Positions 12,304 to 45,343 of a stretch of DNA of 64,000 nt are shown here, piece by piece. The notes beneath the pieces are model-generated. The model saw only the letters and a program-made list of their open reading frames with translations, ran no database searches and was not told the origin of the DNA. The DNA is taken from assembly GCA_965645245.1 (NCBI GenBank), contig OZ287078.1, positions 1,984,001-2,048,000 of the forward strand, written 5' to 3'. Numbering within the stretch: the first letter of the stretch is position 1; every line of letters starts with the position of its first letter. Made by a program: the position numbers and the translations under genes. Source of the stretch: Massalongia carnosa (taxonomy: Eukaryota).

Positions 12304-12906
12304 CTTGATGCGCAGCGTTGAGAGGCTTGATTTCTTTGCCTTGGTTATCTAGTCAAGAATAGAAAGACTCTTTGTCTACAGTTGCTGTGCTTTAATTATG
12401 CTTTTCGGCCTAGAAGTAGTTATATCCAGGCACTGATTACCGCTTCGCTATTGGACCGGTAATTGGCGTGTGGTATCAAAAGGTAGTATAGTAGATAGAG
12501 GATAGAACGCTTGCTGTTGTTCTATATAGTGGGAATAGCTAGATTTATAGACAATGTACGGTATGCTAGTATTAGACTAGCGATACGTCTAGCCATTAGC
12601 GTGCGCCATACTCGTGCGGTAGAAGGTGAGTGCGGCTGAAATGAAGTAACCTGATTTGTACATTCTAACACTCCCACTCAGGCACTGAAATAGCACTCCC
12701 ACATGATAAAGAGAAATTCAATAACTCCCACATACTCCAGTATAATATCATGCTTCCCAGTGGATCACCTGCAGGTGAGTCAGTGTACTCCGCAGGCTAA
12801 TGCTGCTGGCGATGTACGAAAACACCCCCACAGGCTCAGCTGTGGGTGATACTTTTTTTTTTTTTTTGGGTTAAGGTCGAATTTTTTACGACAAAGGGCT
12901 TCTGGT

Positions 12907-15900
12907 TTATTCTAAGCCTAAAGCTTTTCGAAAGACAACAAATTTGTCCTTTGGTAGGGCCTTGGTTAGGCCGTCAGCTACCTGTTCTTCGGTAGGAACA
13001 TAGCGAAATTCCACTGATTTGTCTTCGATCTTCTCTCTTTGGTAGTGCCATTGGATGTCAATATGCTTGCTCCGCGCGTGTGCCTGGGGATTTTTGGCCA
13101 AAGCTATTGCTCCTTGATTGTCGCAGTGAATGATGATAGCATTTAGGGCGAAAGATGTAGGCAAGCAGGCAAGGGCTACAGAGGTGCTCTGGGTTTGGAG
13201 AGAGTGTATCCCAGGGACTTGAGGTGCTGAAAGTTGGTCGAGAAGACTAGACAGCCAGACGGCTTCCTTGGTGGCTTGAGTCTGACCCATGTACTCGGCT
13301 TCGCATGAAGATAGGGCTACGGTCGGTTGTCGTTTGGAAGACCAGCTAATAGCGCCACTACCCACATTAAACACGAAGCCTGAGGTAGACCTTCGGGTAT
13401 GATGATCTCCGGCCCAATCCGCGTCAGTGTAACCGTTCAAGGGTTGTAAGTAACCTTTGTATGTTAACTGCAACGGTAGAGTGCCCTTGATGTATCGAAA
13501 GATGCGTTTGACTGCCTTCCAGTGCGTATCGGTCGGGTTCGAGGCATAGCGGCTGACCACCGATACGGCGTAGGCTAAGTCAGGCCTAGTGCCTAGCATA
13601 GCATACATGAGAGAGCCCACCGCTGATTGGTAGCGGAGGCGAGAGTCATCTGTGGCCTGATGGCCCTCTGGTGCAGCCTCCAGTCGCCCATCCATCGGGG
13701 TAGCCACGGGGTTAGTGTCCCACATGCCATGGTCGCGTAGTACTTTTTCCAGATAGGCCTGCTGACCAAGGCGAAGAATCCTATTAGCCCGATCCCGAGT
13801 TATCGTCATGCCCAGGTAGTAATTGATAGGGCCTAAATCAACCATCGAGAACTCGTCACTCAGCAGTTTCTTGACACGTTGTATCTCGGAAGAAGAAGAG
13901 CCAGTGATGATTAAATCATCGACGTAAATGGCTACGATAACCCCTTCTTTAACGAAAACGCTAAGGTCGGCGTTGACTGGAACGAATTCATGAGACTTGA
14001 AAAAAGTAGTGATCGTTTCATACCAGATTCTAGACGACTGTTTCAGGCCATAAAGAGCTTTCTTCAACTTGCAAACTCTCGTTGACCCGTCATCCAGACC
14101 GGTTGGTTGCTCCACGTAGATTTCCTCGTCCACCCTTCCGTACAAGAAGGCTGTTTTTACGTCCATTTGGTGGATTTCCCAATCATTGGCTGCAGCGATA
14201 GCGAAGATGGCTTTATAGCTCATTGGCTTCACTACTGAAGCAAAAGTCTCATTGTAGTCAATGCCTTCACGTTGCTCAAAGCCTCTGACTACCCATCGAG
14301 CCTTGTAACGAAGAATCTCGCCAGCCGGGCCTCGTTTGATTTTATAAACCCATTTGCCTCGCAGGGCTTTGCGGTCCGGGGGCAGGGAGGTGAGGATCCA
14401 GGGATCATTTTCGTTGATAGAGTCAATTTCTTCCTGCATTGCCCTTCGCCAATCCTTTTCCTCCCGACTATCTACGGCCTGTTTATAGGTTTTAGGCTCG
14501 TATGGCTCCGGGTCATTGGCTCGAGCAAGAAGAGCCAAAAGAGCTAGCGGGTCAGGCGAGGGGGCGCGAAGTTTTGGATGCTTAGAGAGAATATCTGCCT
14601 GGGACCAAGGCTCAATGGGCAGTTGGTTTGCCAATGCCTCTTTTCCAGCGTTTGATGGGAGAGGTCCAGTGGGAATTGATTCTATGGATTCATGAGCGTC
14701 GACTAAGTCCGTATGAGGGGAGTCCGTATGATGGGTAATTTTTTGCTTTCTTGTGGGCGGTCCTGACTGTCCAACATGTAGGGCTCTTTTAGTTTGAGAG
14801 AATGATAAGGAAGGAGGAGTTGGGGGGTTGTTATCTATCCACTGAACATTGGAATAACGCATGACCGCGCCCCGTGGATTTATCATTCGATAGATGTGAT
14901 CGCCTTCGTATCCTACTAAAGTACATTTGGTGGCTCGTTCCTGAAATTTCTTCCATCCGGTGGAGGGCTTGCGATTTTGCGCATAGCCAGTCTGTCCTAT
15001 TATCCTTAGATGTCCTAGTTCTGGTGGGCTGCCGGTGTGAGACTCGTAGGGGGTGATGGAGCGTCCCGCAGTTGGTTGTCGATTTCTTAGGTAGTTGGCA
15101 GTGAGAACCATCTCAGCCCAATATTTGATGTCTAGTTTAGCGCCTTCTCGCATGGTGCTGGCTAACTTGTGAAGCGTTTGACCTAGGCGCTCGGCTGTCC
15201 CGTTCATGGGTGGATTTCCCGGTACGGTAGGTTCCCACTGAATGCCATGCTCGTTTCTGAAATTCTCGAAGTCCTTGGAGTCATACTCACCCCCACAGTC
15301 CGATCGCAAGCGCTTAATTCGTTTGTCCCCATATTCATTTTGCTTCTTGTAGTTTTTAAAAGCTTGAAGGACTCCGCTTTTGACGCGCAGTAAGGTGACG
15401 TGGGACCGTTTATCGAAATCGCAAAGAAAGGTCACCATATATTTGGCGCCGTTCAAGGCTTCTGGGAAAGGTCCTTGGACATCACTGTGAATTAAGTCCA
15501 GCGGGTGCTTGCCTGGTTGGATGGGGGCCCGGTGTGGTTCTACTTGGGACTGAGCGATGGCGCACGGAGGACAGGCGTCTTGGGGCGGGGGCTTGGTGAG
15601 GTCCATTCCTTTTGACATGCCAGCGAGCTTGAGAATGTTTTGATTTCCAAGATGGCCTAAACGAGCGTGCCACATTTTTATCGCCTCGCTATTAATTGCA
15701 GCAAGAGCGAGAGCGGCTTCAGAGACGTTCCACATATTCAGGATATACAGATTGTTGTCCTGGCGGCGAGCGATAATACCATAGTTCCCGATTTCAATTC
15801 CCTCTGGTACAATCTTCAGGGGACATCCATCTCGTTGTAATTGTCCTTGGGAGATGAGATTTAGGCCTCCGTCCGGAACGTATAACACATCGAAAAGAGG

Positions 15901-17031
15901 GAACTCCCGAAGACCCTCGTTACCGGCACACCGCAACATGACGTTACCTATTCCTTTGGGAATTAATACTCCTCCAATACCTTGAATTGGAGGGCAATCG
16001 GATGTCTTGAATGAGGTGAAGATGGAGCGATCGTGGGTAATATGTTGGCTAGTTCCAGAGTCACAGATCCAGAGCTTAGATATTTTGGTTATATCTGCGG
16101 TGGCCATGTAGGCGCAGAAGGCTCCTTTGGTTGAGTCATTGTTTCCGGTTGGCTTTTGGCTTTGACCTTGACTTTTGGAATTCCTACGACGCTTATTGGA
16201 CTTACGCTGTGAGTCTTGGTTAACGAGGTGTGGATATTTTTCACGACACTCGCTCTCTACGTGATAGTCTTTTCGGCAGTGGTTGCAGAACTTGATGGTC
16301 TTGGTGATGATTCGAGAATGGGCTGTTCCGGGTTGAGCTCCTGCTTGGGTTTGAGCGTTTGAAACAGCTGCCATTGCGATTACGGCCTTATCGCTGGACT
16401 TGCTTGGGTTGGTCACCGTGTTTTGGAAATGCTGCATAGCCTGACTTAACGTGTGCTTGGGTTCACCCATTTCATTGAAAGGATCATGATCCTGAGCGTA
16501 TCGTTCGAAATAGCTGTTGTATTCGAAGCCTAAATTGGTATGGAAGCGATAGATAAGCCAGTTTTCGTCCAGGCTTAGCTTGCTTGAGAAGGTGCGAAGC
16601 TTATTCACCGTGGCGCGAAATTGGGTAACGTAGTCTGCAGGGCTGCTGCAATCCGATAGGATAAGGTTGTCTAATTTTCTAAAGGTGTCATTGAGGAATC
16701 CCGAACCGCGAGGCTTATAGTTTGACTCAAGCAGGTCCCAGGCGACGGAAGCAGTAGTATGGTCTTCTATATCGGTGTAGGCATTTCCTTCACAAGCTAA
16801 TCGTAGAGCAGTGCAGGCCTTATCTTGGCCCTTTTTCCATTTGTTGAAGCCATCATTGGGAGCGTTTGGGCGTGGTGCAGCTTCGGTGTTATCACAATAG
16901 ATCCAAAGATCTATCATTTTGAGGCAATCTCGCATGGCTCGCTTCCATGCTGGATAACCCTCGTGGTCCACTAGCTTAGGGATCCTATCAATAGCGCTAT
17001 AGGACCCCGATCCAGAGATTTTTTCACTCAT
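12907..17031 (-). CDS. Copia Gag-Pol polyprotein (Gag/CCHC, protease, GAG-pre-integrase, integrase, RT, RNase H), 1374 aa
   Basis: CNHCRKDYHVESEC knuckle, WICDSGTSQH, WHARLGH, LRSDCGGEY, QMDVKTAFL, YVDD, YTDADWAG and ADGLTKAL in copia order. Confidence 0.97.
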   Translation of the reverse strand: MSEKISGSGSYSAIDRIPKLVDHEGYPAWKRAMRDCLKMIDLWIYCDNTEAAPRPNAPNDGFNKWKKGQDKACTALRLACEGNAYTDIEDHTTASVAWDLLESNYKPRGSGFLNDTFRKLDNLILSDCSSPADYVTQFRATVNKLRTFSSKLSLDENWLIYRFHTNLGFEYNSYFERYAQDHDPFNEMGEPKHTLSQAMQHFQNTVTNPSKSSDKAVIAMAAVSNAQTQAGAQPGTAHSRIITKTIKFCNHCRKDYHVESECREKYPHLVNQDSQRKSNKRRRNSKSQGQSQKPTGNNDSTKGAFCAYMATADITKISKLWICDSGTSQHITHDRSIFTSFKTSDCPPIQGIGGVLIPKGIGNVMLRCAGNEGLREFPLFDVLYVPDGGLNLISQGQLQRDGCPLKIVPEGIEIGNYGIIARRQDNNLYILNMWNVSEAALALAAINSEAIKMWHARLGHLGNQNILKLAGMSKGMDLTKPPPQDACPPCAIAQSQVEPHRAPIQPGKHPLDLIHSDVQGPFPEALNGAKYMVTFLCDFDKRSHVTLLRVKSGVLQAFKNYKKQNEYGDKRIKRLRSDCGGEYDSKDFENFRNEHGIQWEPTVPGNPPMNGTAERLGQTLHKLASTMREGAKLDIKYWAEMVLTANYLRNRQPTAGRSITPYESHTGSPPELGHLRIIGQTGYAQNRKPSTGWKKFQERATKCTLVGYEGDHIYRMINPRGAVMRYSNVQWIDNNPPTPPSLSFSQTKRALHVGQSGPPTRKQKITHHTDSPHTDLVDAHESIESIPTGPLPSNAGKEALANQLPIEPWSQADILSKHPKLRAPSPDPLALLALLARANDPEPYEPKTYKQAVDSREEKDWRRAMQEEIDSINENDPWILTSLPPDRKALRGKWVYKIKRGPAGEILRYKARWVVRGFEQREGIDYNETFASVVKPMSYKAIFAIAAANDWEIHQMDVKTAFLYGRVDEEIYVEQPTGLDDGSTRVCKLKKALYGLKQSSRIWYETITTFFKSHEFVPVNADLSVFVKEGVIVAIYVDDLIITGSSSSEIQRVKKLLSDEFSMVDLGPINYYLGMTITRDRANRILRLGQQAYLEKVLRDHGMWDTNPVATPMDGRLEAAPEGHQATDDSRLRYQSAVGSLMYAMLGTRPDLAYAVSVVSRYASNPTDTHWKAVKRIFRYIKGTLPLQLTYKGYLQPLNGYTDADWAGDHHTRRSTSGFVFNVGSGAISWSSKRQPTVALSSCEAEYMGQTQATKEAVWLSSLLDQLSAPQVPGIHSLQTQSTSVALACLPTSFALNAIIIHCDNQGAIALAKNPQAHARSKHIDIQWHYQREKIEDKSVEFRYVPTEEQVADGLTKALPKDKFVVFRKALGLE

Positions 17032-17634
17032 GATGGAAAGGGTTTATTGGAAGAGCTTAATGGATTGTCCTTGTTAACGGACTGGCTTGAACTGGTGTTT
17101 GGTTTTACCGGATTCCGACGGAGTGCTATTATAAGTGCTTGGTGACTTGGTTCTGGCTCTTAGATCGAAAGGATCACAGTCGCTGGGCGGTTCTAGGTCC
17201 GATTTTGATGTGGACTGACCGGGAGTGACTGGAGGCTCAGGGATGATGGTACAAAGCAATCCAATTTTGATTGATCTGAGTTATCCTCTAAGAGAAAGCA
17301 ACGATTTCCGCACTAGCCGCCTGTAATGTATGTTGTGAATCCCGTTCAAGCCTTGTTGCCGGCCTATTATTTGGTTGAGGCTCTGAGAGTCATTGGATCT
17401 CGGCAAGAGTGCCACGTAGGAATGGGGCAGTGATTGATATAATAGATCTAAACGCAGAAGCAGATGCAGGTGCAAAGATAGATTTGAGGCGTTTAGTTGT
17501 GCCTTTGGGGTTGATAAATCGAGAGCGTTTTTTGTTGCTCGAAGCCATAATCCTGCAGTCTTATAACTGATACGCAGATGCTGACTATGAATAGAGGGCA
17601 AAATCGATTACAGGGAGATTTGGTTTCATCCCAA

Positions 17635-17959: not shown

Positions 17960-18780
17960 GAAACGAAGTGCAAGGAGGTGCCTGTTAAAATATTTGTTAG
18001 CGTTCGTTTAGTAAGGGGCAAAGAAGAAGCCGGGCGCCCGATAGTAGTGCTTAGCCATCTCAAACACTGCCGACTGTTTCATATGTGTCGATTTGTGTCG
18101 GATTTTTTTGTAGGAGATTATTCGCGACGGTAATTGTTTGCGACGGTAAGGAGGCTTGTGTTAGGGTAGGTAAAGTAAGACAAGCAAACACATGTAAAGA
18201 GGCGCCCTGCGGCCGGGCTCATAACCTATCAAAAGGTAGTATAGTAGATAGAGGATAGAACGCTTGCTGTTGTTCTATATAGTGGGAATAGCTAGATTTA
18301 TAGACAATGTACGGTATGCTAGTATTAGACTAGCGATACGTCTAGCCATTAGCGTGCGCCATACTCGTGCGGTAGAAGGTGAGTGCGGCTGAAATGAAGT
18401 AACCTGATTTGTACATTCTAACATGTGGATCTGAACAGAGCAGAATGGAGATGACGGGAAGTGGATTTTCCACAGTGGAAGTATTCTTTGGGTCTACGGG
18501 ATCCTACAACTTACAGGATTGGTATCTTACATGCGTAAGAGAGGGACAAGGATCTGACAAAGATTCTGATTAAATATCATCTCCCTCGTAACTGATGATC
18601 TACAAGATATATTTCTCCCTAGGAAATGAAAATTTGCAGCGTGGATCGGGGAAAGGGTTATGATCAATGGTTTCTATAAGGATTTTGTCACCAATAAGAA
18701 CAAGATTGAATTCGGGGGAATTTCTTGTCCGGGATTCGCAAACAGAAATGAGATTATTCAGCCAGTCTGCACGCAATGGA

Positions 18781-18928
18781 TGTTAGAATGTACAAATCAG
18801 GCTACTTCATTTCAGCCTCACTCACCGAGTATGGCGCACGCTAATGGCTAGACGTATCGCTAGTCTAATACTAGCATACCGTACATTGTCTATAAATCTA
18901 GCTATTCCCACTATATGGAACAAAAGCA
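18781..18928 (+). mobile_element. Partial copia LTR (same family as 12474-18423, opposite orientation)
   Basis: Starts TGTTAGAATGTACAAATCAGG; same deletion variant as the LTR at 39846-40035; 3' end missing. Confidence 0.85.
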
Positions 18929-19210
18929 CTAATGACTAGACGTAGTTGACTCATCTTGCGATTGGCATTGCCCGGCACATTGTAATAATGAATATCTGAC
19001 TTGAAATCATGACCAACAGCTGCCCACTAGTTCGTGTCAATCTCGTTATATTGCTACTAAGTATGTTTGGGCTATTGCTCACAGCCCCCGGCCTCGAGAG
19101 GGGGACTCGATAAGGGCCTTGCTGTCTACTAATGTAAGACCCTCTCGCAGGCCTTGGGCTGTGAACAGACTCCCAATCCCCAACATGGAACGACCCGCTT
19201 GCGGTGTTGT

Positions 19211-20247
19211 TCAGGACCTAGTGACTGGATTGTGAGGTTCCGTGGGTAATGTTTGAAGGCGTTTTGAGGCGTTAAGAAGGTAAGTGGGGTGGGTTTGTAT
19301 GTAAAGCTTGTATGCGTCTGACTTCCATCTTCCTAGCATCTGAATCTCGTCTTCGGTGAGTCCTGCCCGTCGCGCTGTTGTTGCCGCACCTCTTCTGAAC
19401 GAGTGGCCAGAGAAATTTCCTATATAGCCCAAGTTCCTTAAGGTGGATTTCATCGCTGTTGTAATGTAGTCTCGAGTGAAGGACTGACCGTTTTTAAAGA
19501 GTGGTGCGGCCGGAGAACTTGGGAATCGCCTATATAAATTTGTAAGAGAAGCTAGTGCACAAGCAACATCGTTGGTAGCCGCAATTGTCAGTGTTATGCC
19601 TCGGCGAAAGGGATCGGTTTTGGAGACTGGTAGAGAGAGCTGTAGGTGATCTGCTTCGAACCTAATAGATTTTCTGGTGAGGTGCCATTGATCAAAGCTT
19701 GGGTCTAGTACATCTTGCGTTGTGTAAGTAAATTCTCCGGCTCGTAAGAAGCCTGCAAACGCTAAGCAGTACGCCGCATGTAAATTTGCGCCTTTCTCTT
19801 TCGTTTGATCAAGACGACTTAGCAATTTGATTAAGATCTCTCTAGTAATTGGTAACCTTTCACGTTTCTCGGCTTCACCGTTCTTTCGCTTTATGCCAGT
19901 AAGGATGCGATCTAACACCGGGTGATGAAATACGTCGAGATTACCGAGGCCCATATCTATCTGGCATGATCTTATGCCCGTCAAGTAGCTCTTAATAGTT
20001 TTTGGTTGCAGGCGTCGTTCACCCAACGCTGCGATCCACGAAGACAGCGTCCGGATGTTGGCTGGAAATGGTGGCGCGTTGAGGTTTACCCTACAGTAAA
20101 GAACGTATCCCTTTCTTGCCGTTGTGTATAAAGATCTTGTCTTAGTGGCCAGGCCCCACCAGAGGTATCGTGCTGCGATTTCGTCTAGAGGTACCTCACT
20201 GTACCAAGATGGGGGTGGATCGCGTCCTATATTGCTGAGGGTAGAGC
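19211..20247 (-). CDS. Tyrosine recombinase (probable second exon of a spliced GagN-YR protein)
   Basis: Catalytic motifs FLRAGEFT, SKTDPF, SGHSFRRG, GRWKS, AYKLY. The frame stays open upstream through RDPPPSWYSEVPLDEIAARYLWWGLATKTR with no ATG. Confidence 0.92.
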
Positions 20248-21843
20248 CTGAAACTGAGGGATTTTGTCAGCCAGTTTCTTCAAAAGTCCTCTAGACAAGA
20301 GATCAGCAATATAATTTTCTTTGGATGATATCCATCGCGCTTCTATCTGGATATCATGTAATGCAGCTAGCATTGTAATTGCCCGCAGGGCATGCATTGC
20401 TTGGCCTCGTATAGAGGTTTTATTCACTCCTTTCGTGACAGCGTAGCTATCACAATAGAGGATTAAATGACTACCCTTGCATATAGGTAGCCACTTTTTC
20501 ATAGCTTGAAGAATTGCTGTCATTTCTTTGACGTTGATATGCTTTGCCCTAAGGCGCGTAGTAAAGCGTGTGCTAAAAGCCTGCCGGGCTGCTTGTATAT
20601 TATGCAAATTTTGATCCTCGCTGAGGATAAAGCCGCCCATACCATATGAGCCGGACGCATCTGTCCATATTCTCATAGTATGTCTAGTACGGTTGAGCAG
20701 ATGTATGCCATTCCATTTAGGTAGGAAATGATGCCACCATAGAAGATCCGCCCTCATGTCCTTGTTAAGATGGATTAGTTTAGAGGTTACGCTTGCCGTA
20801 GCATTGAAAAGACGGCGTAGAAAGGCTCTTCCTGGTTTTACCACTCTGGCTGCAAAGCATAAGAATCCTAGAAGAGAGTCGAGTTCCTTCCTGGGTATGG
20901 CTTTTTTATTCAAAGCTGCCGATACTAGGGTCTTTGCTTTTAGTAACTTTTCGGAAGGCAAGCGTGCTTCCATGAGCGCGGTATCGATTTCAATGCCGAG
21001 GAAATCGCAAGTCGTTCCAGTTCTGTTCTTTTCGAGCTTGATTTTCATGCCAAGATCTTTACAAATGTTGTGGAAAACTTGATCAAACTTTTCAGCATCT
21101 GGTCCGGTGCTGACTATTATTAAAAAATCATCCAAGTAATGAATAGCGTCTTTCCAACCACAGTTGTACAATATCCAGTTGATACCCTTCGCGAACAGAT
21201 CAAAAAGGAACGGCGACGTTCTCAGCCCAAAGGGTAAGTATTTATCCATCCAAAAGGAATCCTGCCACTTGAAACCTAGTAACCACCAATCGCTTTTTGC
21301 TACTGGTATGTGGCGAAAAGCGTCCGCAAAGTCTCTTTTAATAAGAATACACCCTGGCCCGCGTTGCTCAATCAACCTAATGGCTTCGTCGAAGCTGGTA
21401 TATTCCAGGGAGCCCCAGTCTTCCGGTATGTGGTCGTTGACTGAGCTACTCTCCGGATACGATAGATGATGGATTCGCCGCCAACCACCGTTAGCCTTTG
21501 GTACAAGGCCTAATGGGGAACATATAAAGCAAGAAGGAATGTTGTTGACTTTCTCCAACCGATTACTAGCTATTTGTTCTTCGAGGTCATTGGTAAGAAC
21601 TTCCGGTGCCTCATTTGCAGAGGCAAGATTATCGCTAATAATGAGTTGATGTGGTCCTGTATAACCAACTTTGGCACCGTAGGTGATGATATCGATAATT
21701 GTTTGTGTGTAAGTGCGATCCGGGTGATTGGCCAAATGTTTCTCCCAGCCTTCTTTCTTCAATGGGCCCGGTGGGATCTTTGTTAGATTGTCCGTCAAGG
21801 TGTATGGAAAGGACTCCGCGATGGATAAGAATGGGGCGGTTAG
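20227..21843 (-). CDS. Reverse transcriptase-RNase H, in frame with gag after a single TGA
   Basis: CSPLGLVPK, WRRIHHLS, DFADAFRH, LPFGLRTSP, HYLDDF, FLGIEID, WTDAS, INVKEM, LYCDS, ADLLSR. Confidence 0.93.
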   Translation of the reverse strand, partial: LTAPFLSIAESFPYTLTDNLTKIPPGPLKKEGWEKHLANHPDRTYTQTIIDIITYGAKVGYTGPHQLIISDNLASANEAPEVLTNDLEEQIASNRLEKVNNIPSCFICSPLGLVPKANGGWRRIHHLSYPESSSVNDHIPEDWGSLEYTSFDEAIRLIEQRGPGCILIKRDFADAFRHIPVAKSDWWLLGFKWQDSFWMDKYLPFGLRTSPFLFDLFAKGINWILYNCGWKDAIHYLDDFLIIVSTGPDAEKFDQVFHNICKDLGMKIKLEKNRTGTTCDFLGIEIDTALMEARLPSEKLLKAKTLVSAALNKKAIPRKELDSLLGFLCFAARVVKPGRAFLRRLFNATASVTSKLIHLNKDMRADLLWWHHFLPKWNGIHLLNRTRHTMRIWTDASGSYGMGGFILSEDQNLHNIQAARQAFSTRFTTRLRAKHINVKEMTAILQAMKKWLPICKGSHLILYCDSYAVTKGVNKTSIRGQAMHALRAITMLAALHDIQIEARWISSKENYIADLLSRGLLKKLADKIPQFQALPSAI

Positions 21844-22998
21844 TCATTGCCTTGATGGGAGAGGCATCGAATTTGGGTTAGAGGGTTGATTTTTTCCATT
21901 TGTACAGTCCATCGCCCGATGTTGCTTTCCACATTTCTCACACACATGTTGGAATCTACAATATACGGGACAGTCTTTGCCATAGTTGTATTTCTTACAG
22001 ATAATCTTTTCGCCTGAGGTTTTGAAAGCCGTAGAATTATCGTCCGGTTTTGCAAAGTAAGCGGACGGTTTCCGCACAAGATGCCTTTCCAAGGAATGGT
22101 CCATTTCTTTCCATCCATCCGGGTTGTCAATCCCGCGAAAGGCTCGAGATTTGTGGAAATTCAAATGAAAGATGCGAACCGAGTCCCAGGTGTAGAAGGC
22201 GTATAATGATAGAAGATGGTCCTGATAAGCCATGAAGGCTCTCATCAGGTTTATCTGGAGACCGGGGTGTGCAAAGTGTAGTAGTATCATCCAATATACC
22301 CCGAGACATCGTATCAAATGAACTATCCCTTTGATATCTTTTAAGGAGCCATCTTCTTCTCTCGTGGCGATTTCCAGACCTTCTCCGAGTTTGACGTATC
22401 TAGAGTTGGTTTGAACTCCGTCGATGTCGGTACATAGCTTGGTAATGTTGATTGGGTCAAACGTATTCTCGGAGATTTGCTTTATCCATATGGGCTTGAT
22501 AGTGGGATATTCGTTCATAAGAGAAACAAAACGAGGATCCATACCTTCTGTATACAATGAGTTTGGTCGATGCGGTGGAAATGATGTCGGAAATAATAGG
22601 GAAGGCTGTTGAGCTGAGGCTACTGGCCCAGGGACCACGTCTCGGGCACGTGCTTGTTGGGTTTCGATATCCCGCCTAAGACTTACTCTTTCTCTTTCCT
22701 CGGCTTCCCTGCGGGACATTTCGCGTTGTGCTCTAAGTTCAATAATGTCATCAGGGGTGCGAGAACGGGTTTCCGGTATAACAGGCCCTTGTGAGGAGGA
22801 ATTAAACGCTGAAGATGGAAGAGGAGAAGGTTGAGGATGGCTTTGAAGGGTTGCCGTGCTGTCTTGTGAGTCGGGTACTTCGACGTCTGGGTTGGAGTTG
22901 GCTAGATTTGCCCTAGCTCTAGTTCTAGTACGGGCTAGAGTGCTGCCTTGTGTGCGGGAGGTAGGCTTGGTGATTCTGTTGGAGATGCGGGTGGCCAT
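21844..22998 (-). CDS. Gag-like protein with C-terminal Cys/His zinc fingers (384 aa from ATG 22998)
   Basis: MATRISNR...; CKKYNYGKDCPVYCRFQHVCEKCGKQHRAMDC; homologous to ORF1 of the copies at 29349 and ~60395. Confidence 0.85.
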   Translation of the reverse strand: MATRISNRITKPTSRTQGSTLARTRTRARANLANSNPDVEVPDSQDSTATLQSHPQPSPLPSSAFNSSSQGPVIPETRSRTPDDIIELRAQREMSRREAEERERVSLRRDIETQQARARDVVPGPVASAQQPSLLFPTSFPPHRPNSLYTEGMDPRFVSLMNEYPTIKPIWIKQISENTFDPINITKLCTDIDGVQTNSRYVKLGEGLEIATREEDGSLKDIKGIVHLIRCLGVYWMILLHFAHPGLQINLMRAFMAYQDHLLSLYAFYTWDSVRIFHLNFHKSRAFRGIDNPDGWKEMDHSLERHLVRKPSAYFAKPDDNSTAFKTSGEKIICKKYNYGKDCPVYCRFQHVCEKCGKQHRAMDCTNGKNQPSNPNSMPLPSRQ

Positions 22999-24164
22999 TT
23001 TTGGAGGAGAGGGATTTGAATAGAGTAAATTTAAGTGTAGTTGTTGTATAAATTTGAATTGGGTGAAAAGAAAACGTTGCAAACAGTGCTATCAAAATGC
23101 TATGCTTTTTGATTGTCTTGAGATGTGAGATGATGAGGGATACCGTCTGGGACCTCCTCTTTATATATCTTCTTCCTATTCTCCTTGTCCTACTCTACCA
23201 TCCCAGTATGCCCCATCAACGCGGCCCATAGCAAGGCATACACAAATCCGAAACCTAACTGTCGTCCGAAGGATCGATGCGGTGCTAAGATCTCTATGCC
23301 GTGCTGAGACATCCTTATGGTGCTGAGACATCTATGCCGTCCGAGAGATCCGTGCGGTGCCGAAATCAAAGCGGGAGCTGTCTCGATTAACGACGCACTA
23401 GCTCTCAGCATAGCCGAACTAGGCAATGATGCCGTTTCACATCTCTAGAATCTGGTTCTTCTGCTTGCTGTATACAGTCCTGACAATATCTTTAGCCCGG
23501 CTGGCGAATGATGGACAGTTTACCTTGAGGACCCCATCCGAAATGCACCTCATCACTGAATCGTACGTTATGCCAGTCAGACTTTTCAGGATATCTTTTC
23601 AACATAACTTTGGCCCAATCAAAGCGACGACGAGCTGTTTTCTCATTGACCCAGCCCTTTCTGCATGCGACGCATTTGTGATAGTCCATCGTTCCCATAG
23701 CTATTTGTATGATTCGTCCCGAGCACTCAAGTCCCACCTCATAGCCCAACTCTGCCCAGGTGAGAGCACGCGCCTCAAATCCCTCCTCCTCTATGATGCG
23801 CTCCATTCCGCAAATTTTTTGCGGAGTAACAATAGCCTTTCGCCCTCGCGTTTCAGGAAGATCAGGCTTATTGTGATGTCTTCGCGAGCTCTCCTGATTT
23901 AAAGCTCTCCAACCGGCATGATGACTCATATTAAACGTACGAAAAACGTCCTTTTTGAAGTAGAGAATGCCCATGCGATCGCAGAATTCAACGGCTCCTT
24001 GAATTTTAGCTTTTGTAGGAGTAGGATAGTGCATTCTAGATTCAGAAGAGTTAGGTTCAGGTGTGTTGGGTCGTTCCATGATGCTGGTTGTTGGTGAAAA
24101 GGGGGGATTTTTTGATGGGGTGAAATTTTTGGGTGTCGCTTTTTTTTTCTGCGAGCGCGAGGGC

Positions 24165-25394: not shown

Positions 25395-28300
25395 TATTTC
25401 GAACGATACGCTCAGGATCATGATCCTTTCAATGAAATGGGTGAACCCAGGCACACGTTAAGTCAGGCTATGCAGCATTTCCAAAACACGGTGACCAACC
25501 CAAGCAAGTCCAGCGATAAGGCCGTAATCGCAATGGCAGCTGTTTCAAACGCTCAAACCCAAGCAGGAGCTCAACCCGGAACAGCCCATTCTCGAATCAT
25601 CACCAAGACCATCAAGTACTGCAACCACTGCCAAAAGGACTATCACGTAGAGAGCGAGTATCGTGAAAAATATCCACACCTCGTTAACCAAGACTCACAG
25701 CGTAAGTCCAATAAGCGTCGCAGGAATTCCAAAAGTCAAGGTCAAAGTCAAAAGCCAACCAGAAACAATGACTCAACCAAAGGAGCCTTCTGCGCCTACA
25801 TGGCCACTGCGGATATAACCAAAATATCTAAGCTCTGGATCTGTGACTCTGGAACTAGCCAACATATTACCCACGATCGCTCCATCTTCACCTCATTCGA
25901 GACATCCGATTGCCCACCAATTCAAGGTATTGGAGGAGTATAATTCCCAAAGGAATAGGTAACGTCATGTTGCGGTGTGCCGGTAACGAGGGTCTTCGGG
26001 AGTTCCCTCTTTTCGATGTGTTATACGTTCCAGACGGACAACTACAACGAGATGGATGTCCCCTGAAGATCGTACCAGAGGGAATTGAAATCGGGAACTA
26101 TGGTATCACTGCTCGCCGCCAGGACAACAATCTGTATATCCTGAACATGTGGAACGTCTCTGAAGCCGCTCTCGCTCTCGCTGCAATTAATAGCGAGGCG
26201 ATAAAAATGTGGCACGCTCGTTTAGGCCATCTTGGAAATCAAAACATTCTCAAGCTCGCTGGCATGTCAAAAGGAATGGACCTCACCAAGCCCCCGCCCC
26301 AAGACGCCTGTCCTCCGTGCGCCATCGCTCAGTCCCAAGTAGAACCACACCGGGCCCCCATCCAACCAGGCAAGCACCCGCTGGACTTAAGTCACAGCGA
26401 TGTCCAAGGACCTTTCCCAGAAGCCTTGAATGGCGCCAAATATATGGTGACCTTTCTTTGCGATTTCGATAAACGGTCCCACGTCACCTTACTGCGCGTC
26501 AAAAGCGGAGTCCTTCAAGCCTTTAAAAACTACAAGAAGCAATATGAATATGGGGACAAACGAATTAAGCGCTTGCGATCGGACTGTGGGGGTGAGTATG
26601 ACTCCAAGGACTTCGAGAATTTCAGAAACGAGCATGGCATTCAGTGGGAACCTACCGTACCGGGAAATCCACCCATGAACGGGACAGCCGAGCGCCTAGG
26701 TCAAACGCTTCACAGGTTAGCCAGCACCATGCGAGAAGGCGCTAAAGTCGACATCAAATATTGGGCTGAAATGGTTCTCACTGCGAACTACCTAAGAAAT
26801 CGAAAACCAACTGCGGGACGCTCCATCACCTCCTACGAGTCTCACACCGGCAGCCCACCAGAACTAGGACATCTAAGGATAATAGGACAGACTGGCTATG
26901 CGCAAAATCGCAAGCCCTCCACCGGATGGAAGAAATTTCAGGAACGAGCCACCAAATGTACTTTAGTAGGATACGAAGGCAATCACATCTATCGAATGAT
27001 AAATCCACGGGGCGCGGTCATGCGTTATTCCAATGTTCAGTGGATAGATAACAATCCCCCAACTCCTCCTTCCTTATCATTCTCTCAAACTAAAAGAGCC
27101 CTACATGTTAGATAGTCAGGACCGCCCACAAGAAAGCAAAAAATCACCCATCATACGGACATCCCTCATACGGACTTAGTCGACGCTCATGAATCCATAG
27201 AATCAATTCCCACTAGACCTCTCCCATCAAACGCTAGACAAGAGGCATTGGCAAACCAACGGCCCATTGAGCCTCGGTTCCAGGCAGATATTCTCTCTAA
27301 GCACCCAAAACTTCGTGCCCCCTCGCCTAACCCGCTAGCTCTTTTGGCTCTTCTTGCTCGAGCCAATGACCCGGAGCCATACGAGCCTAAAACCTATAAA
27401 CAGGCCGTAGATAGTCGGGAGGAAAAGGATTGGCGAAGGGCAATGTAGGAAGAAATTGACTCTATCAACGAAAATGATTCCTGGATCCTCACCTCCCTGC
27501 CCCCGGATCGCAAAGCCCTGCCAGGCAAATGGGTTTAAAAAATCAAACGAGGCCCGGCTGGCGAGATTCTTCGTTACAAGGCTCGATGGGTAGTCAGAGG
27601 CTTTGAGCAACGTGAAGGCATTGACTACAATGAGAATTTTGCTTCAGTAGTGAAGCCAATGAGCTATAAAGCCATCTTCGCTATCGCTGCAGCCAATGAT
27701 TGGGAAATTCACCAAATGGACGTAAAAACAGCCTTCTTGTACGGAAGAATGGACGAGGAAATCTACGTGGAGCAACCAACCGGTCTGGATGACGGGTCAA
27801 CGAGAGTTTGCAAGTTGAAGAAAGCTCTTTATGGCCTGAAACAGTCGTCTAGAATCTGGTATGAAACGATCACTACTTTTTTCAAGTCTCATGAATTCGT
27901 TCCAGTCAACGCCGACCTTAGCGTTTTCGTTAAAGAAGATGTTATCGTAGCCATTTACGTCGATGATTTAATCATCACTGGCTCTTCTTCTTCCGAGATA
28001 CAACGTGTCAAGAAACTGCTGAACGACGAGTTCTCGATGGTTGATTTAGGCCCTATCAATTACTACATGGGCATGACGATAACTCGGGATCGGGCTAATA
28101 GGATTCTTCGCATTGGTCAGCAGGCCTATCTGGAAAAAGTACTACGCGACCATGGCATGTGGGACACTAACCCCATGGCTACCCCGATAGATGGGCGACT
28201 GGAGGCTGCACCAGAGGGCCATCAGGCCACAGATGACTCTCGCCTCCGCTACCAATCAGTGGTGGGCTCTCTCATGTATGCTATGCTAGGCACCAGGCCT

Positions 28301-28977
28301 GACTTAGCCTACGCCGTATCGGTGGTCAGCCGCTATGCCTCGAACCCGACCGACACGCACTGGAAGGCAGTCAAACGCATCTTTCGATATATCAAGGGCA
28401 CTCTTCCGTTGCAGTTAACATACAAAGGTCACTTACAACCCTTGAACGGTTACACTGACGCGGATTGGGCCGAAGATCATCATACCCGAAGGTCTACCTC
28501 TGGCTTCGTGTTTAATGTGGGTAGTGGCGCTATTAACTGGTCTTCCAAACGACAACCGACCGTAGCCCTATCTTCATGCGAAGCCGAGTACATGGGTCAG
28601 ACTCAAGCCACCAAGGAAGCCGTCTGGTTGTCTAGTCTTCTCGACCAACTTTCAGCACCTCAAGTCCCTGGGAATCACTCTCTCCAAACCCAGAGCACCT
28701 CTGTAGCCCTTGCCTGCTTGCCTACATCTTTCGCCCTAAATGCTATCATCATTCACTGCGACAATCAAGGAGCAATGGCTTTGGCCAAAAATCCCCAGGC
28801 ACACGCGTGGAGCAAGCATATTGACATCCAATGGCACTACCAAAGAGAGAAGATCGAAGACAAATCAGTGGAATTTCGCTATGTTGCTACCGAAGAGCAG
28901 GTAGCTGACGGCCTAACCAAGGCCCTACCAAAGGACAAATTTGTTGACTTTCGAAAGGCTTTAGGCTTAGAGTAAAA

Positions 28978-31900
28978 GTAATTCGGCTAAGGCGAAAGGT
29001 AATGCCGGGACCGAGTGGAGGCAGGCCGCGAAACAGCCGACGAAGGCTGAAGGCCGTGGATAGCCGAAGGACCGAGTGGAGGCAGGCCGCGAACAGCCAA
29101 CGAAGGCCGAAGGACAAAGGAGGATGATGTCCAAAATAGTTGGACAAGCAAGGGAGAGAAAGGGCATAAATAGGTGGCCTTTTGGCAATCTTCTCCTCAT
29201 CATCACCATTGATTCGGAGTTCAGCACCAAAAGGTCTTTTGAAAGTCTTTCCCGAATTAAAAACATCTGTCAATCACCCACCCTCAACCCCATCATTCTA
29301 AATCACCTCCATTTCTCATCCTATATTACCTCCCACACTGAGCCCATCATGCCTTCCCATCGCCCTCAAAGAATCACCAAGCCTTCCGCCCGCTCCGGAA
29401 ACACCTCCGGGCCTGGTCAACGTCTCACTCGTTCCACCCGACCCCCTAGGGGAGGGGCCATAGTTCCAGAAACAAAGCCTCCTCCGAACACCCAAGGTTC
29501 GGAAGGAACACTTCGGGGCGATGTGATAGACGTCCACCGAACACCGGAACCAACCCCGGACCTGCTGTTGGACCTCAGGGCTCAGCAGGAGGCCACGGCG
29601 ACAGCCCTCAGGCAGGAGGAGACCCGTCACCTTCAAAAAAAAATTACCGACAACTTGGCGGCCATTCAACGTATAAGGGAGGGAAACACAGTCCCCGAGT
29701 ATAGGCATGAGGTACACACTCCCCACCCGAACCAGCTACTACCCGCTGAAACTGAAGGTACGCATCTATGTCTCCTTCCTCTAATTATCGAGTACCCCGC
29801 CATAAACAGCATTTATTTCCGACGAATTCTGAGCAACAAATTCGACCCCATAAATATTTCCAAGCTCTGCACCGATGTAGTCTTGATCAAACCAACTGTC
29901 AAACGAGTGAACCTGGCCAAAGGATACGAATTAATACAGGAAGAAGACGACGCGTCACCAGGAGACATCAAGGGACTACCCCACCTGATTCGCTGCCTCA
30001 TGGTGTATTGGCAGGTCTTGCTTCATTTGGCACTATCTCGAATAAAAGACAGTCTTTGTAGTGCCTTTCAAATCTATCAGGACCGCTTGTTGTTACATTA
30101 CACCATCTACACCAGGGAGTCAGTACGGGTGTTTCATATAATCTTTCACAGGGGTCGAGTGTACCAGGGGTGAACGACCCGGCCGGATGGAGGAGAATCG
30201 ACACCACCATCGAAAACATGTACCTTACTCGACGGACACCTAACTTGTCCATGACGGGAGGTACCACCAAACAGTACCCGGGATCAATCCCGATAGGCGG
30301 CTCCACTGAATCAAAGCCCATGTCCTGCAATCGATACAACGCAGGGCGGGAATACAAGGACTGCAGGTACCTTCACGTCTGCAGTCTCTGTTTCGGCCAT
30401 CACACGAAAAAAAACTGCCCTAAGGCACATATCAGCAACCCAAATTTCATGTCAACGGGTAGACGAGATTGACTAGCCGGCCCATTTGATCATATCGCCG
30501 AATGGTTCCCCTATCCGCTGATAGATAAATCAGTAATCGTACCCTCAGGGCCTCTAAGAAAAGAAGGCTGGGAACTTCACGTCATGGGTCATCCGGACAA
30601 AACTTAAAAACAGACCATTCACGATATAACCGTGTACGGGGCCAAAATTGGTTACACCGGCCCAGATCAGTTCATTCTAAGCAACAACCTGGCCTCGGCC
30701 AACGTGGCCCCAGAAAATCTGACCATGGACGTAGAGGACCAGAGGGCCAAGAACCGATTGATCGAGGTACCCACCCTACCAGCCAGATATATGTGCTCCC
30801 CCTTAGGCCTGGTCCCCAAACCAAACGGAGGATGGCGCGGTATTCATCACCTCTCCTACCCCGAGGGTAATTCGGTGAACGACTTCATTCCCGAAGAATG
30901 GGGCGCTCTGGTGTTGAGAATTGAGCCGAGATGTCTGCTTATTAATAAGAGCACTAACCGAATGCGGATCAAGCACTAAGGGTTATTTCGGCCGTGGCAA
31001 CACATCACTAATCATTCGAGATGTCATCCATCTGCCAGCTAAGGGAGGCAAAACGGAATATATTGTTAGATGGTGAGGCTACCATTGGTTAGATGGTCAG
31101 GCTACCATCAATATAGGCATCCATCGTGAGTCACACGGGTGTCTACCAGGCACCTATGGAGGTGCCTAACAGGCAGCTATAGGAAGCCTACAGCATTACT
31201 GCTGTGTGACTGCTATAAAAGCAGGTAGATAGCCCACATAGATAATAACCCTCAATGAAATGTATGCTTCTTATTTGCCCTACTTCCGTTTCATGATCAA
31301 TAGCCTGGTGTTTCAACATCTGGAATATATCACTTTCGACGAAGCCCTCGCCGGTGTCAGAAGATTGGGCAAAGACTGCGTACTGATCAAACGAGATCTA
31401 GCCGATGCCTTTCGCCACGTTCCCGTGGCGCAAAGCGATTGGTGGTTGTTGGGTTTTTGTTGAAACGGGGTTTACTGGATGGAACGCTTTCTTCCATTCG
31501 GCCTCAGGACGTCTCCCTTCTTGTTTGAATTATTCGCGAAAGGTCTGAACTGGATGATGATTAATAAAACAAATGGCGAAGTTATTCACTACCTGGACGA
31601 TTTTCTCGGAATCGTTCGCGCTATTCCCGATGCGGCATCCTTTGATCGGAACTTTGCAGAAATTTGTCAGCCTAAAAATCAACGAAAAGAAAAATAAACA
31701 AGGCACGGTAGTCGAATTCCTGGGCATCGAGCTGGACACACACCTCATGCAGGCACGACTACCGGCCGAAAAGCTTCAGAAAGCTAAGGATGTCGTCCAA
31801 ACAACATTGAATAAATCCACTATAACCAGAAACGAGCTAGACACTCTGCTGGGATTTCTGTGCTTTGCAGCCAAAGTGGTGGTGCCGGGAAGAACCTTTC

Positions 31901-33694
31901 TCCGACGCCTTTTCAACTGCAAAATTGGGCCCGCGCGCCCATTTATTCATATCAATTCTCACATAAAAGCTGATCTTTTATGGTGGCATCATTTCCTTCC
32001 ATTATGGAACGGCATACACATTATTAGCCCTTCGAGACCCTTGCTCCGTCTCTGGACGGATGCCAGTGGGGACTTCGGAATCGGGGCATACATACTTCAA
32101 GGTGGTCAAACCACACACACATTGCCCGCTGAGCAAGTGGTTTCTGAACGTTATACCACCAGGCTCAGAGCCAAACATATCAATGAGAAGGAGATGACAG
32201 CAATTCTGCACGCCATACGGCGGTGGCTCCCCATGTGCAAGGGAGCTCATCTTCTTCTTTATTGCGACAGCTTTGCTGTAATGTCCGGGGTCAAAAAGAC
32301 CTCCATTCGGGGCGGGGCCATGCATCCCCTCCGGAATATCGCCATGATGGCGGCAATATATGACATTGAGATTGAACCACACTGGCTGTCTACCAAAGAA
32401 AATTTCTTAGCAGATTAGTTGTCCCGAGAACTATTTGGAAAAATCGCTGACAATTACCCCAACCTGCAGGGCATTTCATCGAACAAATAACGGCGTCACT
32501 CGCCCGCGACCCCAGAGACTTGGTATAACGAGGTTCCGCTGGATCGCCGAGCAGCCAGATGTTTATGGTGGGGCATAGCAATTAGGACTCGAGGGCTATA
32601 CGATGCAGCTCGGAAAAGCTACACGACTCACTGTCAATTAGCAACCAATTTCCCTCCCTTTCCAGCGTCAATTCGAAGTCTTTCGGCATGGATAGCCGCC
32701 CTGGGTCAGCGAGGGCTCTGCCCGAAAACCATCAAAAACTATTTAGCTGGAGTACGATCGAGCCATTTGGACATGGGCCTAGGGGACCTGGAGGTCTTTC
32801 ACCATCCAGTCCTAGACAGAATAATAGCGGGAATAAAACGAATGCACGGTGAACCAGAAAGACGAGAAAGGCTACCAATCACACGCAACGTTTTGATAAA
32901 ATTGCTACGGAAACTATACAATACCAACGAAGTCCAGGCAACACTTCATGCAGCATACAGCATCGCATTTGCCGCCTTCTTAAGAGCGGGAGAATTTACC
33001 TACAAACAGGGAGAAATGCAAGACTCCAGCTTCGATTCATGGCATTTAACTAGGAAATCGGTGGATCTACAAGCGGATCGAATAATTCTTTCCCTACCAT
33101 CATCCAAGACGGACCCTTTTCGAAGGGGTAGAAAAATTTATATCGCAGCAACAAACGACGAAGCATGCTCGATCACCTCCATTCGGAACTTGTTTACCCG
33201 ATTACCGAAACCAGCATCGTCCCCATTGTTCCAAGTTCAGGACAAGGCCTTCACTCGTGAATATTTAGTGCAGGCCCTACGGAGTGGCCTCCGGGCAATT
33301 GGCGTCCGAGGGAATTACTCGGGTCATTCGTTTCGACGGGGTGCAGCAACAACGGCTAAGAACTCGGGCTTGCTAGAGGAAGATATTCAGACCTTGGGCC
33401 GATGGAAATCAGACTCGTATCAATTGTACATTCAAACACACCCGGACCAATTAATAGCGACCTCCCTTCGTTTTCAACGACCCCCCGCCACGTTCCGAAC
33501 AGCACCACCGTAGGTGGGCCATTCCCTGCTTGGGGTTGGGAGTTTTTTCCCCTCACTGCTGCCAAAACAAAGCCATATAGGAGGGGCCTTCAGCAAAACT
33601 GAGCGCCAGCAGGGCAGCAGCGAGGGGAGAGTTGCTCAAACATAGATAGAAATTATGTATATGTTCAGCTGACACGATGGAGCCCGCGAATTAC
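28978..33694 (+). mobile_element. Complete but decayed YR retrotransposon, family B
   Basis: Gag from ATG 29349, RT-RH ~30473-32490, YR to 33513; termini GTAATTCG...CGAATTAC; inserted between copia TAAA and CCAGAAG. Confidence 0.92.
30912..31318 (+). mobile_element. Solo LTR (407 bp) inside the YR element RT
   Basis: TGTTGA...TCAACA termini; TSD TCTGG; RT frame WGAL|EYITFD rejoins. Confidence 0.92.
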
Positions 33695-39671: not shown

Positions 39672-40445
39672 ACAGCTGAGCTTGTGGGGGTGTTTTCGTA
39701 CATCGCCAGCAGCATTAGCCTGCGGAGTACACTGACTCACCTGCAGGTGATCCACTGGGAAGCATGATTATATACTGGAGTTTGTGAGAGTTATTTAATT
39801 TCTCTTTATCATGTGGGAGTGCTATTTCAGTGCCTGAAGTCGGAGTGTTAGAATGTACAAATCAGGCTACTTCATTTCAGCCTCACTCACCGAGTATGGC
39901 GCACATAATGGCTAGATAGTCTAATACTAGCATACCGTACATTGTCTATAAATCTAGCTACGTATTCCCAATATATAGAACAAAGCAAGCGTTCTATCTT
40001 CTATTGACTATACATTACTATACTGCCTTTTGATACCACTACTGCTAGGAGGTTAGGAGAACAAACAAACAAGAGAAGAACAGGACAATAGAATAATAAC
40101 AATAGCTAGACTAGTCACTGTATGCCTCGTGCCTCGTGCATCGTGTCTCTGTATGTGAATTGCATGTGTTGATGCTGTGTGTTGTTATAGCTATGTGTGC
40201 TGTAGCTAAACTGCAAGCATGCTCTGCTCTGTATCTAAAGGAAAAGAGCTATCTGTCACCTGACTTCCGTGCCACCCATACAACGAATTGATTATCTTCG
40301 CCGTATTTGGCATGAAATTGACCACATGACCACTTTTCTTATATTGACATCCTTTCACACAACGAAACTTTATAAGTATATGGGCTCGGGCAATTAGCAT
40401 CTCTTTAGCGATAGATAAATGAGCCAAGTTGGAAGGCGCTGTACC

Positions 40446-43981: not shown

Positions 43982-45343
43982 CCTAGGTCCATGTCATTTT
44001 CAAAATTCGTTCAACCCATCGATTGTTTCTTCGCCTCTACCGAAGTCAATCTCATTACATACATCGCAAGCGCGTCATTTCAACTTGTCGAGCTTGCTGT
44101 GGAACTTCTCAATATATTTTCAATGCTGACTACAACGGCCGCATTATCGAGAAATTGAGTTTTGACAACTGCGTCTTCCACAGTAGAGGGCTCTTTAATG
44201 CGAGTATGACGGTTAAAAATGGCTCTTCATTGTTAAAGGAAGCTATTTGGTTCTTCATTGTGACAATTTTGCTGTTGCAATAGGAGTAAAAACAACATCT
44301 ATTCGAGGTAGTGCTATACATGCCCTTTGGGCAATTGCCATGTTGGCCGCTTTGAATGACATTAAGATTAAACCTTGATGAATCAGCACCAGAGACAATG
44401 CTGCTATAGACATGTTGTCTCGAGGAAAAATACCAAAGATCGCTGACAGGTATTCTAATTTCCAGACATTAGCAACACCTTTGTTCATGATCCTCCTCCA
44501 ATCTTTTGTACTCAAACTTCTTTTGACAAGGAGTCAATCAATCTGATTTGATTGGATTTAGCAACCAAGACTTGAGATTTTAATTCCTCAGCTAAAAGAA
44601 GCTACGAGATTCATTGTCAAGTCAACAAGATCTTTTCCTATTTTCCTGTTATCTTGCAAAGAATAGCTTTATAAATCACCGAGCTAGTCAAACGGAAAAT
44701 TGCCTTTAAAACCCTCAAGGATTACCTTGCCTGGCTTAGATCTATGTTAATTGATTTTGGTGTGGAAGATCTGGCAATCTTTTATCATTCTTCACTTCAG
44801 AGACTGATCACGGGCATCAGAAGAAGACGAGGGGAAGAAGACAATCGCGAGCGTCTTCCTATCACAAAGGATTTTCTTTTACAACTAGTGTCAAAGCTTG
44901 ATTAAACAGTCGAATCACAAGCAGTGATACGCGCCGCTTACTGTTTAACTTTTGCAACTTTTCTCCGAGCAGGAAAGTTCACCTGCTTGAATAAATATTT
45001 TCAGAATCCTGAATTTGCGTCATGACAATTAATAGGGGTTTTCAGAGTAGAAATTTTCGAGTCTATAAACCATTATTCCCGTTTTCCCGTAAATATTATT
45101 AAGCAGACTAAACCTATATAGGTTTAACTCTACCCCTTTTTTTATAAATACGGGAACACGGGAATAATGGTTTATCGGTCAAAATCGACCGATAAACTAT
45201 TATCTCATAAACCCGTATCTCATAAATCCTTCAATTCACTAACCTCATTCATCAGAATTATAAGGTAAATGATCAACGGCATCAACGAATCGTACAATTA
45301 AGGTAAGAATACTACTACCTCGTCTTCTTTCATAGCTGACCAC

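Follow-up and report, generated by a model that had tools for sequence, protein, structure and literature searches.

Recombinase expression in the DIRS/Ngaro retrotransposons is unsettled: the recombinase frame often overlaps pol and has no start codon of its own. According to the available text of the survey of fungal clades by Muszewska et al. (2013; PMC3783388), elements of the Ngaro group, within the DIRS order, carry gag, reverse transcriptase (RT)/RNase H and tyrosine recombinase (YR) genes in this order, and the YR open reading frame (ORF) is either in frame with RT/RNase H or frameshifted. The strings 'intron' and 'splic' were absent from that text in a term search, and the available text of a DIRS-1 paper (PMC7192593) mentioned splicing for an engineered marker intron only. 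In the literature searched on splicing, introns and subgenomic RNA in Ngaro and DIRS elements, outside of which lay the founding Goodwin and Poulter papers, no natural splicing for recombinase expression was found. Here, a 64,000-nucleotide (nt) stretch of Massalongia carnosa (GenBank assembly GCA_965645245.1, contig OZ287078.1, positions 1,984,001 to 2,048,000, forward strand; this whole stretch is called the window) was analysed. It carries on its minus strand an intact Ngaro-like tyrosine-recombinase retrotransposon, element A (19027-23422, 4396 bp), whose recombinase is probably made as a fusion to the N-terminal part of Gag (GagN) from a spliced subgenomic RNA.

The extent of element A was set by public contigs, as some contigs of runs X1 and X2 joined 19026 directly to 23423 (the empty site) and others contained a head-to-tail junction from 23422 to 19027; a CTAG is present at each end. 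On one strand, the element possessed a gag ORF (21847-22998, 384 amino acids (aa), ATG at 22998) closed by a TGA (21846-21844) that is followed by CTA, then, in the same frame, a pol ORF (20230-21843, 538 aa; Pfam RVT_1, E = 2.9e-14; RT_RNaseH, E = 1.4e-07), and finally a YR frame of 351 codons, which opens at 20266, ends at 19214 and is offset by -1 relative to pol. No Pfam family was matched in the gag ORF, pol matched the RT and RNase H families only, with no Pfam match to a methyltransferase (an absent Pfam match being weak evidence), and neither a protease nor a DDE integrase was found in the element. As gag, RT/RNase H and YR follow each other in this order without a methyltransferase, the layout is that of the Ngaro group, which likewise lacks protease, DDE integrase and methyltransferase, the last being what separates it from DIRS1/PAT; the offset of YR from pol is also given for fungal Ngaro elements in the available text of PMC3783388. 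Putative terminal A and B segments were seen in other copies, whose contigs joined B (19174-19027) to A (23422-23067), and also A to B across 39 nt; in a mini form present in public contigs (runs X1, X2, X5 and X6), 39 nt stood in place of the 3892 internal nt that separate the two segments. The window copy differs from the full Ngaro pattern (A1...B1-A2-B2) in consisting of A1-internal-B1 only, with no A2-B2. A second difference is the proposed splice-based GagN-YR fusion itself, of which a term search of the available text of PMC3783388 returned no description.

The YR frame encoded a Cre-like tyrosine recombinase. A YR profile built from 24 family members (the element A frame and 23 relatives) matched 17 distinct PDB sequences, all Cre or Cre-derived Tre, over both the N-terminal and the catalytic domains (best E = 9.7e-08; profile positions 37-306). 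In the family alignment, K216, W314 and Y322 were invariant, while R175, H288 and R291 were found in at least 90% of sequences; all six were present in element A, and we take these columns to fill the catalytic R-K-H-R-(H/W)-Y roles. The original prediction had this frame lacking an ATG before its conserved N-terminal region, and the first Met is indeed residue 106, within the part that aligns to the Cre N-terminal domain (Cre residues ~21-180). A start at residue 106 would therefore give a product without a Cre-like N-terminal domain. The frame had 1484 relatives in the protein collection; among the relatives listed, 97 of 120 gene calls covered less than 90% of the YR frame, and the window's own gene call (P0001) begins at an internal Met of YR, so that the missing start is a family trait.

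Signals by which the recombinase frame could be entered from gag were present in element A. Fungal introns have a donor near GTRNGT, a branch site CTRAY and a YAG 10-25 nt downstream of it; the counterparts in element A are GTATGG and CTGAC, with a CAG at both +13 and +19. The proposed 5' splice site (GAAG|GTATGG, 22539-22544, minus strand) has homologues in relatives, is in phase 1 and splits the GGT codon of a T-E-G sequence; it would end a first coding exon made of the Gag N-terminus (22545-22998, minus strand; 151 codons and 1 nt, 454 nt). The branch-site consensus CTGAC (20266-20270, minus strand, branch A at 20267) lies within GCTGAC (20271-20266), and the TGA inside it is the very stop that opens the YR frame. 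Two acceptor CAGs follow on the same strand, 6 nt apart and both in phase 1. The first (20254-20256), 13 nt from branch A, would start exon 2 at 20253 and give a 498-aa product; the second (20248-20250, the end of TTTCAG), 19 nt from branch A, would start it at 20247 and give 496 aa. The coding part of the proposed exon 2 thus spans 19214-20253 (minus strand, stop at 19213-19211; profile match to Cre/Tre, E 1e-7), and all of pol falls inside the proposed intron. In minus-strand sense, the predicted junction would read ...ACAGAAG followed by TTTCAGGC (from 20253) or by GCTCTACC (from 20247). The original prediction had named a donor, a branch-like site and the second CAG alone. Its coordinates, motifs and phases were all recovered from the sequence of element A, and a virtual join of 22545 to 20247 (454 + 1037 nt) gave the uninterrupted 496-aa GagN-YR frame that it had announced. 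The CAG at 20248 is present and in phase, but the CAG at 20254 is equally plausible as acceptor. The latter has the spacing of the majority of relatives, the former that of the nearest relative, the family B copy B2 elsewhere in the window, and of loci L003, L008 and L068; either or both may be used.

Element A alone does not single out the donor at 22544, as four of the 11 GTRNG sites upstream of its branch site are in phase 1 and a better-looking phase-0 donor exists at 22686. Since the donor is not unique within the element, the case beyond chance rests on conservation. The conservation test that had been proposed for donor, branch site, acceptor and phase was run on related loci and was positive. 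The sample consisted of 79 loci with flanks from metagenome contigs plus four window copies, which fell into 48 clusters when sequences around the junction were grouped at 90% nucleotide identity; the clusters are related, and counts across them are not fully independent. Six clusters had no upstream sequence, leaving 42 for the acceptor side.

In 33 of these 42 clusters, the stop opening the YR frame was the TGA or TAA of a CTGAC or CTAAC. An AG stood 13 nt past branch A in 27 of the 33, in every case preceded by C, and 19 nt past it in four; the two clusters with neither spacing (L020 and L022) are degenerate copies. A search independent of the stop, for CTRAC-N6-22-YAG starting 10-130 nt before the invariant W codon, found the motif in 34 of 42 clusters, compared to 41 of 870 control windows taken on the same strand within the pol and YR bodies, and the exon start was in phase 1 in 33 of the 37 instances. 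At the branch site, the pol residues are A or T, then D or N, always encoded as [GA]CT [GA]AC, and CAG is the only codon used for the Q that comes next; in the remainder of these pol ORFs, Ala was encoded by GCT in 20% of cases, Thr by ACT in 23%, Asp by GAC in 56%, Asn by AAC in 58% and Gln by CAG in 49%. Silent sites are otherwise saturated, as twenty third-codon positions of pol upstream averaged ~0.35 bit. The conservation of branch site and acceptor is thus not at the protein level, because the residues vary (A/T, D/N) while the CTRAC and CAG nucleotides stay, and the YR frame imposes no constraint on CTRAC, since the motif is a stop codon in that frame.

The donor side was compared in the 19 clusters with a gag core match and enough upstream sequence. 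In the stretch of 141 nt that precedes the gag core, 20 GTRNG sites were in phase 1, against three in each of the other phases. At the boundary between the variable Gag N-terminus and the gag core, 14 of the 19 clusters had a phase-1 GTRNG, compared to 48 of 290 control windows; it read G|GTACGT or G|GTATGT in 12 of the 14, with GTATGG in element A and GTACGC in the family B copy B1. The shorter phase-1 G|GTA was present at the gag-core boundary in all 19 clusters. Here too, the encoded residues vary (G/S, T/M, Y/S/F/L) while the nucleotides [GA]GT-A[CT]G-T stay. The G at +5 was missing in five clusters (L001, L003, L008, L041 and L032), of which L041 and L032 are degenerate representatives, other members of the L041 cluster having GTACGT. 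As a separate observation, another donor-like motif in phase 1, reading G|GTGAGA or nearly so, was present in a distant group (L029, L034, L036, L047, L049, L052, L053, L066 and L079); it lies 39 nt downstream of the main G|GTAYGT and may be an alternative 5' splice site.

The other copies in the window, all on the plus strand, retained parts of the same arrangement. Family B had been said to share the donor and acceptors and to enter the RDPP frame through them. The sites were confirmed: B1 possessed the phase-1 donor GAAG|GTACGC at the homologous TEG codon (29758-29763) and a phase-1 GCTGAC..CAG (32446-32469), and B2 a phase-1 GCTGAC..CAG with a spacing of 19 (63028-63051). The entry into the frame held for B2, which runs in frame into ARDPPETWY, but was broken in B1 by a small indel between the acceptor and the W-Y motif; as the donor region of B2 was lost by deletion, neither B copy is intact for both sites. 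The family C relic kept GCTGAC..CAG (44442-44465, spacing 19) in phase 1, as had been noted for it.

Virtual splicing was tried on 17 elements with gag and a full-length pol match and could be computed in 15; in the remaining two, the gag frame is broken and its first ATG comes only after the donor. Eleven of the 15 yielded open frames of 435-663 aa, the introns removed being 2291-2889 nt long; the other four, from degenerate copies, yielded short frames (95-365 aa). A contiguous counterpart of such a product was found in P0018 (513 aa; sources NCBI and Logan), a single intronless GagN-YR ORF without RT, and in its near-identical cluster mate P0122, likewise a single GagN-YR ORF; they are carried by a 3.8-kb contig and, for P0122, a 28-kb ENA contig. 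The GagN part of P0018 (TPDELTELRAQR...) was 38% identical to residues 78-150 of element A, the similarity ending at window position 22549, 4 nt before the donor, and its recombinase part was complete. At the level of the protein sequence, such a structure would be expected if a spliced RNA had been reverse-transcribed. A Gly-rich insertion was also present in P0018 and P0122, and in their HxxR box H was changed to Y; this change suggests that P0018 may be decaying or domesticated, and the ORF may also be a processed copy. In searches for further cases, GagN (151 aa) had three matches and no fusion among 1.84 billion representatives, and residues 1-137 of P0018 matched only P0018 itself in a 5.8-billion set. 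P0148, a Collybiopsis model of 671 aa that lacks RT, had an N-terminus matching no gag among the loci and was left unclassified. The protein atlas gave generic RT clusters only.

The observed sites, phases, open fused frame and conservation across relatives are consistent with the following scheme, in which we infer the splicing itself, its partial extent and whatever function GagN may have other than supplying a start codon. Full-length RNA would be translated into Gag and, by read-through of the in-frame TGA (TGA-CTA), into Gag-RT/RNase H. A minority of transcripts would be spliced from 22545/22544 (GAAG|GTATGG) to the phase-1 CAG at 20254 or 20248, with the branch at A 20267, which would take out ~2.3 kb comprising the gag core and all of pol. 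From the gag ATG, this subgenomic mRNA would encode a protein of 498 or 496 aa, in which the first 151 Gag residues are followed by the recombinase in full. GagN would thereby give the start codon that the recombinase frame lacks and, being basic with a charged helical stretch, may add localisation or Gag-binding functions.

With somewhat less assurance, the balance of evidence also favours a wider proposal, in which a large fungal Ngaro-like clade (pol identity down to ~35%) would share a retrovirus-like strategy based on an alternative intron of 2.3-2.9 kb, running from the boundary between GagN and the gag core to the first recombinase codons. Under this proposal, the integrating enzyme would always be a GagN-fusion translated from a subgenomic mRNA, GagN would tether the recombinase to Gag/cDNA particles, the weak splice would set the Gag to recombinase ratio, and occasional reverse transcription would give rise to pol-less GagN-YR genes like P0018.

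Several observations weigh against production of the recombinase by this splice, some of them by lending themselves to the rival explanations discussed below. Introns of 2.3-2.9 kb far exceed ordinary fungal introns. No 22545/20247 or 22545/20253 joint was present in the contigs of four runs of unrecorded kind, where only terminal-repeat and empty-site joints were found, and none of the 48 clusters contained a processed, pol-less copy. Among nearer relatives, L001 (TCAG|GTACTA), L003 (GAAG|GTAATA) and L008 (CCAG|GTAATG) have no G at +5. Within element A, the site AGA|GTAAGT at 22686 is closer to the donor consensus than the proposed site, with which it could compete; it is in phase 0 and would give a dead product. 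A public 114-aa model (P0138) joins this donor to a CAG at 22548 (22548-22686, minus strand), its acceptor being 3 nt before the proposed GagN donor; the predicted 139-nt intron shifts the frame and looks spurious.

The alternative that survives best, while still improbable, is that the acceptor is real but is served by another donor, such as a phase-1 site in gag or pol, a site in the 5' untranslated region (UTR) or one that bounds a short intron late in pol, giving a longer Gag-YR, a Pol-YR or a non-AUG start. Element A does offer such sites, with three further phase-1 GTRNG (21998, 21941 and 20642) and three GTRNG in the 5' UTR, and public NCBI gene models for basidiomycete relatives join pol, not gag, to YR at the homologous place, from donors that vary and lie within RNase H or just after an ADAAS motif. 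The junctions of these models differ, however, even within one species, as ab initio prediction would give, and we read them as cases in which predictors recognise the acceptor and improvise the donor. Moreover, no pol position had a phase-1 GTRNG in at least 3 of the 48 cluster representatives, so that a short intron fusing pol to YR was rejected as a candidate; no plausible donor lay within 100 nt before the branch site of element A, and the gag-boundary donor alone was conserved in position and phase.

A -1 ribosomal frameshift in the pol/YR overlap, making YR the C-terminal part of a Gag-Pol-YR or Pol-YR protein, appears very unlikely. Nearly all related elements have YR shifted by -1 with respect to pol, a conserved offset that would suit frameshifting equally well, and contiguous RT-RNase H-YR ORFs exist in distant relatives (e.g. 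P0181); other Ngaro lineages have YR in frame with RT/RNase H or frameshifted, according to the available text of PMC3783388. Against this, an X_XXY_YYZ heptamer occurred in the usable overlap of only five of 42 clusters, at differing positions, and not at all in element A; the usable overlap is only ~15 codons, and the position of the pol stop varies widely. Frameshifting would also leave unexplained both the silent-site conservation of CTRAC and CAG and the phase-1 donor in gag.

Slightly less probable again is that YR is translated on its own, through termination-reinitiation after pol, a near-cognate start or an internal promoter. In ten of 22 aligned database relatives, the called protein has an M that precedes the DPP motif by one to three residues, an ATG was present within the short YR leader in 10 of 42 clusters, and in element A an ATA (20232-20230) overlaps the pol TAG as ATAG. 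However, the starts given in the databases were set by automatic callers and are not necessarily ATG, and in the other 32 of 42 clusters no ATG lay between the frame opening and the invariant W. The position of the pol stop ranged between 16 nt upstream of the frame opening and ~850 nt downstream of it (an overlap of -16 to 853 nt), hence there is no fixed stop-start arrangement, and reinitiation after a read-through product would yield very little protein. Reinitiation at a stop-start overlap (ATGA/TAATG), considered as a general mechanism because of the M-x-R-DPP starts, was dropped since the position of the pol stop is too variable.

Least probable of all is that the conserved motifs are not splice signals and reflect another RNA or DNA role (priming, packaging or a recombination site) or shared ancestry, for although all the evidence is comparative and drawn from related clusters, the neighbouring silent sites are saturated, three separate motifs match the fungal splice consensus in order, spacing (13 or 19 nt) and phase, and an intronless GagN-YR ORF exists. 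Alternative splicing as the putative source of the recombinase, as originally suggested, has passed the comparative test, and the frameshift and own-start alternatives found no support.

Further features of element A concern its gag-pol boundary and its abundance. Gag and pol were separated by a single in-frame stop in element A, in B1 and at loci L001, L003, L008 and L056, reading TGA-CTA in element A (21844-21846) and TGA-CTAG in B1 (30470-30476), which we assume to be a context favouring read-through; in more distant relatives, the two were in different frames or fused (L029). Word depth over 18900-23400 was ~21,000 in run X2 (814 million letters), ~170-550 in X1 and ~2 in X5 and X6. The depth in X2 suggests a very high copy number of element A, or strong expression if X2 is RNA.

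The window is rich in transposons. The regions at 12907-17043, 25859-28975, 34830-39207, 46478-47866 and 54750-57566 contain an intact copia-like polyprotein of 1378 aa, another copy that is partial, an element with RT/RNase H, a DDE_Tnp_4 transposase and a Plavaka-like fragment, together with one host-like gene that has 11 TPR_10 repeats and looks like a fungal NLR. A short element with inverted arms of 103 nt and 47 nt adjoins the 3' end of element A (18265-18928) and recurs near 12474-12670, 39846-40013 and 58195-58367; it looks like a miniature inverted-repeat transposable element. Four ORFs of exactly 206 aa, distributed over both strands (34830-35450, 42204-42824, 51988-52608 and 59130-59750), resemble a piece of the reverse transcriptase from another repeated element, and one copy interrupts or flanks B2.

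If the proposed splice is real, DIRS/Ngaro elements would gain a retrovirus-like subgenomic mRNA, and it would be explained why the recombinase has no start codon and why its frame offset is fixed. A new protein species, a GagN-YR of ~55 kDa, would be predicted, and genome annotations, in which the recombinase is now called from an internal Met or stitched to pol, would be corrected. The element would also provide a natural case of a very long, regulated fungal intron.

Among known proteins, the recombinase resembles the Cre/XerD-type enzymes in its profile match over both domains and in the conserved R-K-H-R-W-Y positions; unlike them, it is eukaryotic and borne by a retroelement, and its Pfam Phage_integrase (PF00589) score of 20.4 bits is below the curated cut-off of 27.1.

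Among known modes of expression, a precedent is the env mRNA of avian leukosis/sarcoma virus, whose donor lies inside gag, so that Env begins with the first gag codons (6 residues). Both systems would share one primary transcript, a donor in gag, a long intron that removes gag-pol and a borrowed gag AUG, and in both, inefficient splicing would set the ratio of products. They differ in that the downstream gene here is a recombinase, in the role of an integrase, rather than an envelope gene, and in that the borrowed part would be ~150 residues (up to ~310 in relatives) instead of 6. The ORF IV mRNA of rice tungro bacilliform virus is spliced across a ~6-kb intron, which fuses a short leader ORF in frame; here again, a downstream ORF of a reverse-transcribing element receives its start codon through a splice that joins distant sequences in frame, but the virus is a plant pararetrovirus, its leader has only a few codons and its product is not a recombinase. 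In the 2-kb RNA of Drosophila copia, a splice removes pol and leads to overproduction of Gag, and foamy viruses produce Pol without Gag from a spliced pol mRNA. In these elements, as proposed for element A, alternative splicing rather than frameshifting sets the ratio of structural to enzymatic protein, whereas neither forms a Gag-enzyme fusion by skipping pol. What would be new here is that the spliced subgenomic mRNA, known from retroelements, is applied to the recombinase of a YR retrotransposon.

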